Origin: a virus
Taxonomy: Duplodnaviria; Heunggongvirae; Uroviricota; Caudoviricetes
Virus record (IMG/VR): IMGVR_UViG_3300029498_000035
DNA: 5,719 nucleotides
Reading direction: 5' to 3' (one strand)
Shown in pieces: positions 579 to 1,174 of the stretch. Both the position numbers and the translations under genes were made by a program. The notes under the pieces were generated by a model. It saw only the letters and a program-made list of their open reading frames with translations. It had not been told where the DNA came from and did no database searches. Every line of letters begins with the position of its first letter. The first letter of the stretch is position 1.

Positions 579-838
579 GGTTCTTTCCACCATCTGAAAA
601 ATAATTCTTTAAAATACCAGACATGTAACACAGAAAAAACACAAAACCATACCTTAAATAGAAACCTGATCATCAAGCAGATATGCATGGATAAACTACA
701 AGACGAGATATAAACCACCCTGCATTTAAATAAACAATAAACAACATCAGAAAAATAATTCTGCTCTATGGTTTATATTCAAAAATATCATTTATACTTT
801 TCAGAACATCACCAGCAAGGCATAAACAAGGAAGCTAA

Positions 839-1174
839 ATGAAGTGGATTGTGATTGATACAGTTATCCAGCCATCATGCGGAATATCTTTTTCAGTCAT
901 ATGGAGTAAAGTAAAATTAATAATCTGGTATCAATCGGATGCTTTCTTACCTCCTGAAAGTATATTTACACTGACTCACACAGGTATCATGCTCAATAAC
1001 AAAGTGCTACCTGTAACCATTTACAACGTAGTACCATTCAATAAAACATTCTGGAATTTAATCAAAAACAGCCAGGAATGCCCTACAAATACAGATAACG
1101 TATTGAATGAATGCTTTAATAACCGTTGCACTCTGCAAATATGTTCTTATGGACTAAAACAACAAAGTCCATAA
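839..1174 (+). CDS. hypothetical protein, AT-rich orphan ORF (moron candidate)
   Basis: ORF-track plus ORF of 111 aa. A strong Shine-Dalgarno AAGGAAG at 828-834 sits 4-6 nt before the ATG. A TATACT -10-like hexamer lies at 793-798. The ORF sits in a low-GC island (sampled at about 25% GC upstream of the ORF, estimated about 33% within it) against roughly 50% GC flanks. An open frame this long is unexpected by chance in AT-rich DNA. No family recognised. Confidence 0.5.

Follow-up and report, generated by a model that had tools for sequence, protein, structure and literature searches.

The 111-amino-acid open reading frame (ORF) at positions 839–1174 of the analysed viral DNA (a stretch of 5,719 nucleotides, further referred to as the window) is almost certainly iraL, a prophage-borne paralogue of Escherichia coli K-12 iraM whose product stabilizes RpoS via RssB and which is expressed from a sigma70-type promoter of its own. 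The initial annotation had presented this plus-strand ORF as an orphan of no recognised family at a position typical of toxins, yet its product belongs to the IraM/IraL/RssC family of anti-adaptors (as judged from NCBIfam model NF007393, the 8twd structure, and its identity to the CFT073 protein), and is an RssB anti-adaptor rather than a toxin. While this identification takes the ORF off the list of unknown prophage cargo, iraL is an already characterised gene that is encountered here in its usual context, and nothing in the present analysis changes what is known of it. It should be noted that the identity, fold, conserved frame, cassette boundaries, and conserved promoter and start-site sequence of this iraL were computed here, whereas RssB binding, RpoS stabilization, and the start site were established experimentally for the 98%-identical CFT073 protein and gene (PMC4045071).

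The ORF protein matched the NCBIfam IraM model (NF007393) with 156.4 bits (against a cutoff of 121; E-value of 2.5e-46) over residues 1–110 of its 111, and a PDB sequence search returned the crystallised IraM(1–78) of 8twd (E-value of 8e-32). Moreover, megablast of the 594–1174 region produced matches with a nucleotide identity of at least 90% in 1446 of the 5426 complete E. coli genomes searched, and the coding sequence underneath each of the matches listed was named "anti-adapter protein IraM" (i.e., following RefSeq naming). The E. coli paralogues are nevertheless told apart as iraM (K-12) and iraL (CFT073, formerly ycgW), and a copy is assigned to the iraL subtype if its nucleotide identity to CFT073 iraL is 95% or more across the entire coding region (PMC4045071). 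The window gene differs from CFT073 iraL at only 3 of its 336 nucleotides and thus exceeds this 95% threshold, whereas K-12 iraM is only 70% identical. At the protein level, 109 of the 111 residues are the same as in CFT073 IraL (WP_000871291.1, locus c1429), with I25V and P103S as the exceptions, and a homologue search yielded 10 close relatives of the ORF protein. A Pfam scan of the same protein reported no family at E-values up to 10, which is probably why no family had been recognised initially.

The window covers the part of a lambdoid prophage that extends from Q to the lysis region, in reverse orientation. Its minus strand carries genes for a DUF968 protein (5162–5686), RusA (4775–5149), and the Q antiterminator (3957–4778, followed by a small minus-strand ORF), a DNA methyltransferase gene (2333–3382), two tRNAs (2122–2283, followed by a DUF3927 mini-ORF on the same strand), and the DUF1737 remnant of the nanS-p (SASA esterase) gene (390–593, with a Pfam DUF1737 match at 1e-16 and a likely start codon at 576–578). 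The latter is the left neighbour of the cassette in which iraL resides. As the initial annotation had described, the 111-amino-acid ORF is oriented opposite to the late operon; it is the sole sizeable plus-strand gene, and all annotated neighbours are located on the minus strand. With regard to the tRNA block, ARAGORN designated the tRNA at 2208–2283 (minus strand) as Met with a CAT anticodon, while its homologue in RefSeq and in the 933W record is a tRNA-Ile (ileZ), which therefore implies a lysidine-modified CAT anticodon. Furthermore, two strong minus-strand intrinsic terminators are situated 3′ of the Q gene (3859–3874 and 3529–3546), the first of which lies ca. 85 nt past the Q stop codon and resembles the arrangement of the short PR′-tR′ transcript of lambda; a consensus scan found no promoter near either of them.

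Base composition sets the iraL region apart from its surroundings. The AT-rich island that had been reported at 594–1174 was recovered, with a GC content of 32.4% versus 49.6% (1–593) and 51.3% (1200–5719) in the flanks, and the earlier estimate of 33% GC within the ORF was close to the measured 34.2%. Upstream of the ORF (594–838), the AT-richness itself held as well, but the estimated value of 25% proved slightly low, as 29.8% was measured and the lowest 150-nt segment of the AT-rich region still contained 28% GC. Such a composition invites the view that the ORF is no more than a chance, non-coding open frame, since AT-rich DNA is poor in GC-rich codons, and the flat GC content of the gene over its codon positions (35/35/33%) and the Pfam scan without a match would both agree with this. 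However, an ATG-initiated ORF of at least 111 amino acids emerged in only 1 of 2000 mononucleotide shuffles of the 594–1199 region, so that a chance ORF of this length is not expected at such composition. In addition, Nei-Gojobori dN/dS ratios between the three paralogue clades amounted to 0.17 (iraL vs. iraM), 0.12 (iraL vs. the paralogue from Stx2c phages), and 0.10 (iraM vs. the Stx2c-phage paralogue), these values being approximate as dS between paralogues exceeds 1 and is saturated; these comparisons point to clear purifying selection. A curated family HMM match, a solved homologue, and published genetics and biochemistry of the orthologue (PMC4045071) argue in the same direction. The chance-frame interpretation, to which we attach a practically negligible probability, is refuted, given that the frame is conserved and that a function has been published for the orthologue. 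The initial annotation had itself listed a frame that is not conserved, a dN/dS near 1, or missing transcription as signs of a chance frame, none of which was encountered: the frame is kept in homologues, the ratios are those given above, and the gene has been shown to be transcribed in CFT073.

The structure predicted for the ORF protein is that of an IraM-type anti-adaptor. Eight family members served to build an AlphaFold model, which displayed pLDDT values of 77–92 over residues 1–80 and below 50 over residues 81–111, with modelled strands at residues 2–11, 16–22, 26–33, 42–45, 49–52, and 55–66, a helix at residues 69–77, and an unstructured tail (residues 81–111). The model thereby reproduces the fold of the family (i.e., a PmrD-like antiparallel β-barrel, a β-hairpin, and a single α-helix within residues 1–78, followed by a Cys-rich flexible tail), in agreement with how the IraM fold has been described (PMC10844676). 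In a Foldseek search, the best PDB match was 8twd_A (RssB-bound IraM; TM of 0.90 and rmsd of 1.3 Å), and the next matches were the PmrD structures 4hn7, 2jso, and 2rqx (TM of 0.70–0.75, with 12–21% identity). The latter, together with a precomputed PF11183 tag on cluster representatives (PF11183 presumably being the PmrD family), could be taken to mean that the protein acts in a PmrD-like manner, as a connector protecting a phosphorylated response regulator such as PmrA, and not on RssB. This seems highly improbable. The PF11183 tag was not reproduced when the ORF protein was scanned against Pfam up to an E-value of 10, and the 12–21% identity to PmrD compares with 65% identity to the IraM core and 98% to IraL, both of which have RssB as their partner (PMC4045071, PMC10844676). 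[quoted passage not shown]

More specifically, the residues with which IraM contacts RssB fall into clusters I–III (PMC10844676). All five residues of cluster I (I4, I6, W22, K26, and I42), facing the N-terminal receiver domain of RssB, are identical in the window protein, compared to three of the five in cluster II (facing the RssB C-terminal domain; T13S and L75I) and two of the four in cluster III (facing the RssB linker and helix α8; H63N and I64V), with all of these substitutions except H63N being conservative. [quoted passage not shown] Given the differences in C-terminal-domain and linker contacts, the IraM co-crystal appears not to be transferable in detail to IraL.

The tail of the protein (residues 81–107, encoded by window positions 1079–1159) displays a C-X10-C-X4-C-X4-C spacing that is common to IraL, IraM, and the Stx2c-phage paralogue. 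Its C92, C97, and C102 are invariant in all eight aligned family sequences, while one row of the alignment is deleted over C81. This Cys tail is predicted to be disordered and was removed for crystallography, and it possibly accommodates a metal site or disulfides. The P103S substitution directly follows the last tail cysteine.

The ORF is preceded by an AT-rich upstream regulatory region (594–838, plus strand) that is conserved to 96% or more in CFT073, NCTC86, and MS 85-1, and that shows no similarity to the DNA upstream of K-12 iraM. The near-consensus Shine-Dalgarno (SD) sequence and plausible –10 element that had been noted initially can both be assigned within it. Indeed, an SD sequence (5′-AAGGAAG-3′) can be read at 828–834, at 4 nt from the ATG at 839 (i.e., 835–838; or 6 nt when counted from its AGGA core at 829–832), and a –10 hexamer (5′-TATACT-3′; 5′-TATAAT-3′ in the Stx2c-phage paralogue) is present at 793–798. 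The 5′ end of the CFT073 iraL mRNA was previously determined by 5′-RACE as ACATCACCAGCAAGGCATAAACAAGGAAACCA (PMC4045071), and this sequence is found in the window from position 806 onwards with 2 mismatches near the SD sequence. By homology, the transcription start site is thus placed at 806 (plus strand), 7 nt downstream of the –10 hexamer. In this way, the independent transcription proposed for the ORF is upheld via the CFT073 orthologue, for which a sigma70-type start site of its own has been mapped (PMC4045071).

At 15 nt upstream of the –10 hexamer, a –35-like hexamer (5′-TTTATA-3′) is located at 772–777. It reads 5′-TTTACA-3′ in CFT073, NCTC86, and JJ1886, and 5′-TTTATA-3′ in the window and in MS 85-1, due to a C-to-T change at position 776. 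Hence, the –10, the start-site sequence, and most of the upstream DNA are conserved with respect to CFT073, but the best –35-like hexamer carries C776T. Because of this poor –35, the iraL promoter was missed by a consensus promoter scan, which returned unrelated plus-strand sites (731–759 and 890–917) at chance rate. As for known regulators, K-12 iraM is induced by PhoPQ upon Mg2+ starvation, and a search for a PhoP box upstream of iraL retrieved only a GGTTTA half-site at 770–775, with mismatching sequences both 11 nt upstream (TTCTGC) and 5 nt downstream (AAAAAT).

The altered –35-like hexamer bears on whether the ORF, although iraL by descent, might be an allele that has weakened or is decaying, within a degraded prophage, and that contributes little to RpoS control. 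Some iraL copies are known to carry a –35 point mutation, and the expression of such copies was stated to be unknown (PMC4045071). The iraL2 copy of JJ1886 was described as one of these (PMC4045071), while the JJ1886 copy examined here (one of two) carries 5′-TTTACA-3′. Besides C776T, the P103S substitution falls within a CPYG motif of which the proline is kept in K-12 IraM, CFT073 IraL, the Stx2c-phage paralogue, and seven of seven other aligned family sequences, and the exact window protein is rare, being present on only 4 contigs in a collection of 15 billion proteins. The prophage itself bears marks of decay too, as an IS66-family end occupies positions 1–92 and the nanS-p esterase gene is cut down to its DUF1737 stub. 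Given P103S and 5′-TTTATA-3′, the expression or activity of this iraL copy could be reduced. Nevertheless, its reading frame is intact, as are its –10, start-site, and SD sequences, and the 5′-TTTATA-3′ variant is also found in MS 85-1 and is therefore not specific to the window. Since IraM residues 1–78 are sufficient for RssB binding and form stable RssB complexes on their own (PMC10844676), a substitution as far downstream as residue 103 is not likely to prevent binding, and loss of function of the window iraL is considered unlikely. All in all, we regard a weakened allele as an unlikely, albeit conceivable, description of this gene, and retain its assignment as iraL with an RssB-directed function.

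NCTC86 and JJ1886 possess a complete nanS-p gene (1854 nt), but only its DUF1737 stub is left after deletion in the window, CFT073, and MS 85-1, with RefSeq listing the DUF1737 ORF as a pseudogene in the latter two. Positions 1–92 of the window are not of prophage origin, and match the end of the IS66-like ISCro1 element, for which two E. coli genomes show an insertion at this point; the remaining iraL prophages all part from the window at position 93.

Comparison of the locus across related phages, as the initial annotation had suggested, delineated a variable cassette at about 580–1243 that comprises iraL together with its promoter region, as well as the 3′ end of the first copy of an STnc100-family sRNA. 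Specifically, homology with 933W, BP-4795, and JLK-2012 ends sharply at window positions 571–579 (the nanS-p start codon) and resumes at 1244–1253 (inside the STnc100 unit). Between these boundaries, 933W, BP-4795, and JLK-2012 contain 170–265 bp of unrelated DNA, versus about 670 bp in the window. The suggested separate acquisition of the ORF as moron cargo is thus supported by the cassette being missing at this exact site in all three phages. Of the typical hallmarks of a moron, presence or absence at a fixed site, a deviating GC content (30–34% vs. 50%), and an own promoter and start site (PMC4045071) were found, while an own terminator was not.

By contrast with these sharp boundaries, Stx2c and Stx2a phages (2851, 1717, and the O157:H7 Z1815 prophage) displayed ca. 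70% identity throughout 421–1376. Because these phages are homologous through this region and carry an IraM-family gene in the same orientation beside stx2B, the sequence comparison indicates that the slot is old and shared among phages. The position between the Q/tRNA block and the lysis region had been named as a place for lysogenic-conversion cargo, which agrees with both the paralogue adjoining stx2AB in Stx2c phages and a product that alters host physiology via RpoS. As confirmed by the sharp boundaries, host-modulating genes are exchanged at the slot that separates the tRNA/sRNA block from nanS-p and that is the Shiga toxin site in other phages.

On its 3′ side, iraL faces an array of STnc100-family sRNA units on the minus strand. 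The first copy (1200–1388) scored 132.5 bits with Rfam RF02076 (gathering score of 47) and has its terminator at 1209–1230, so that 25 nt separate the iraL stop codon from the convergent end of this copy. Further units are located at 1664–1857 (138.8 bits) and, in degenerate form, at 1453–1628 (30 bits). The window therefore holds three tandem STnc100 units (two full and one degenerate), each with its own intrinsic terminator; the stems at 1209–1230, 1460–1479, and 1673–1692 have a T-run on the minus strand only and constitute the 3′ ends of these units. A 2026 preprint on related PasD/STnc100 sRNAs describes duplicate PasA and PasD copies as distal and not tandem, and given these distal copies the tandem array may be worth a look.

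The initial annotation had the ORF converging on the first of these terminator hairpins. While this geometry was correct, the hairpin is not a canonical terminator for the ORF, being that of the opposing STnc100 sRNA with its T-run on the minus strand. The possibility that the 1209–1230 hairpin works as a bidirectional terminator was likewise unsupported by sequence, since its plus side has no T-run. A search for a canonical plus-strand terminator downstream of iraL found none, and a 10-bp stem-loop spanning the iraL stop codon (1146–1175, plus strand) has no U-run after its stem.

From the published work on its orthologue, the following mode of action is very probable for this iraL. In a lysogen, iraL would be transcribed from its own sigma70-type promoter (–10 at 793–798 and start at 806), opposite to the late operon, after which the PmrD-like β-barrel core of IraL (residues 1–78) would bind the ClpXP adaptor RssB. 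With RssB blocked, RpoS (the stress sigma factor sigma S) would no longer be delivered to ClpXP and would accumulate, even during exponential growth. In accordance, CFT073 IraL was shown to bind RssB and stabilize RpoS in log phase, and its describers proposed that it helps uropathogenic E. coli and Shigella to adapt to their niches (PMC4045071). In terms of expression, iraL levels are increased in a fur mutant (PMC7157518), and the CFT073 iraL (c1429) mRNA increases by 1.6 log2 upon a shift to 37 °C (PMC12890032). Judging from its AT-richness, iraL is likely an H-NS target, which would help explain this induction at 37 °C. In K-12, H-NS represses iraM.

The orientation of iraL could add a further layer of control. 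Q-dependent late transcription would run antisense across iraL and would be expected to oppose its expression during lytic growth. As iraL lacks a canonical terminator of its own, its mRNA may also read into the 3′ end of the STnc100 sRNA and pair with it. A convergent and antisense layout that is truly regulatory, with prophage induction silencing iraL, is nevertheless a speculative reading that we deem rather improbable. If true, antisense silencing would make RpoS stability in the host depend on whether the prophage is lysogenic or lytic, and the stx2-adjacent paralogue of Stx2c phages, itself uncharacterised, would likewise tie RpoS control to toxin-phage biology. What the present analysis adds is small, i.e., a rare allele (with P103S and the –35-like change) and a third, unstudied clade of the family beside stx2.

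Among known systems, the closest counterpart of the window gene is iraL of the uropathogenic E. coli strain CFT073 (c1429/ycgW; Hryckowian et al. 2014, PMC4045071), with 97.5% DNA identity over window positions 93–1417. The CFT073 potB prophage offers the same context (Q, tRNAs, DUF3927, iraL in opposite orientation, DUF1737, and holin), and the same –10, start-site, and SD sequences. Apart from I25V, P103S, and the C-to-T change in the –35-like hexamer, both loci differ by two base changes beside the SD sequence, and by the three STnc100 units and DNA methylase of the window being replaced in CFT073 by an IS200 element and three tRNAs.

K-12 IraM (ycgW, b1160; PDB 8TWD, PMC10844676) is more distant, with 61% overall identity to the window protein and 51 of 78 identical residues (65%) in the crystallised core. 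Although it belongs to the same NF007393 family and has the same fold, tail cysteine spacing, and a similar coding GC content (34%), its homology with iraL is limited to the coding sequence, the upstream DNA being unrelated, and its locus is a different one, with icd and ycgX as neighbours within a prophage remnant. IraL in turn has 4 extra C-terminal residues, differs in its contacts with the RssB C-terminal domain and linker, and is reported to act in log phase and on the RssB N-terminal domain only, unlike IraM. Many E. coli genomes with iraL as best match show a second place in a distant search, which suggests that a single genome often harbours iraL together with iraM, or else two copies of iraL.

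Further away, RssC is an IraL/IraM-like anti-adaptor of Salmonella (with ca. 47–49% identity in ClustalW comparisons of the genes, i.e., rssC vs. iraL and rssC vs. iraM; PMC4045071) that is restricted to Salmonella, in contrast to iraL, and tblastn retrieved a 33%-identical match in a Salmonella phage fragment. PmrD, the PmrA/PmrB connector, shares the β-barrel and helix fold of IraL, and PmrD and IraM both bind the receiver domain of a response regulator (PMC10844676). However, PmrD has PmrA instead of RssB as its partner, and protects this partner from dephosphorylation, whereas IraL blocks substrate delivery.

Finally, the IraM-like gene of Stx2c and Stx2a phages represents a third IraM/IraL clade, found in the O157:H7 Z1815 Stx2c prophage (L005 6115–6438) and also in 2851, 1717, and Stx2a_WGPS. 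This gene is unannotated in most phage records, and a literature search found no paper characterising it. Its product shows 73% protein identity to IraL and 65% to IraM, and the gene shares with the window iraL both its orientation and its slot, with an STnc100-like element on one side and nanS-p on the other. In contrast to iraL, it encodes 107 amino acids, is preceded by 5′-TATAAT-3′ as –10 sequence, and is situated directly downstream of stx2B, which it faces.
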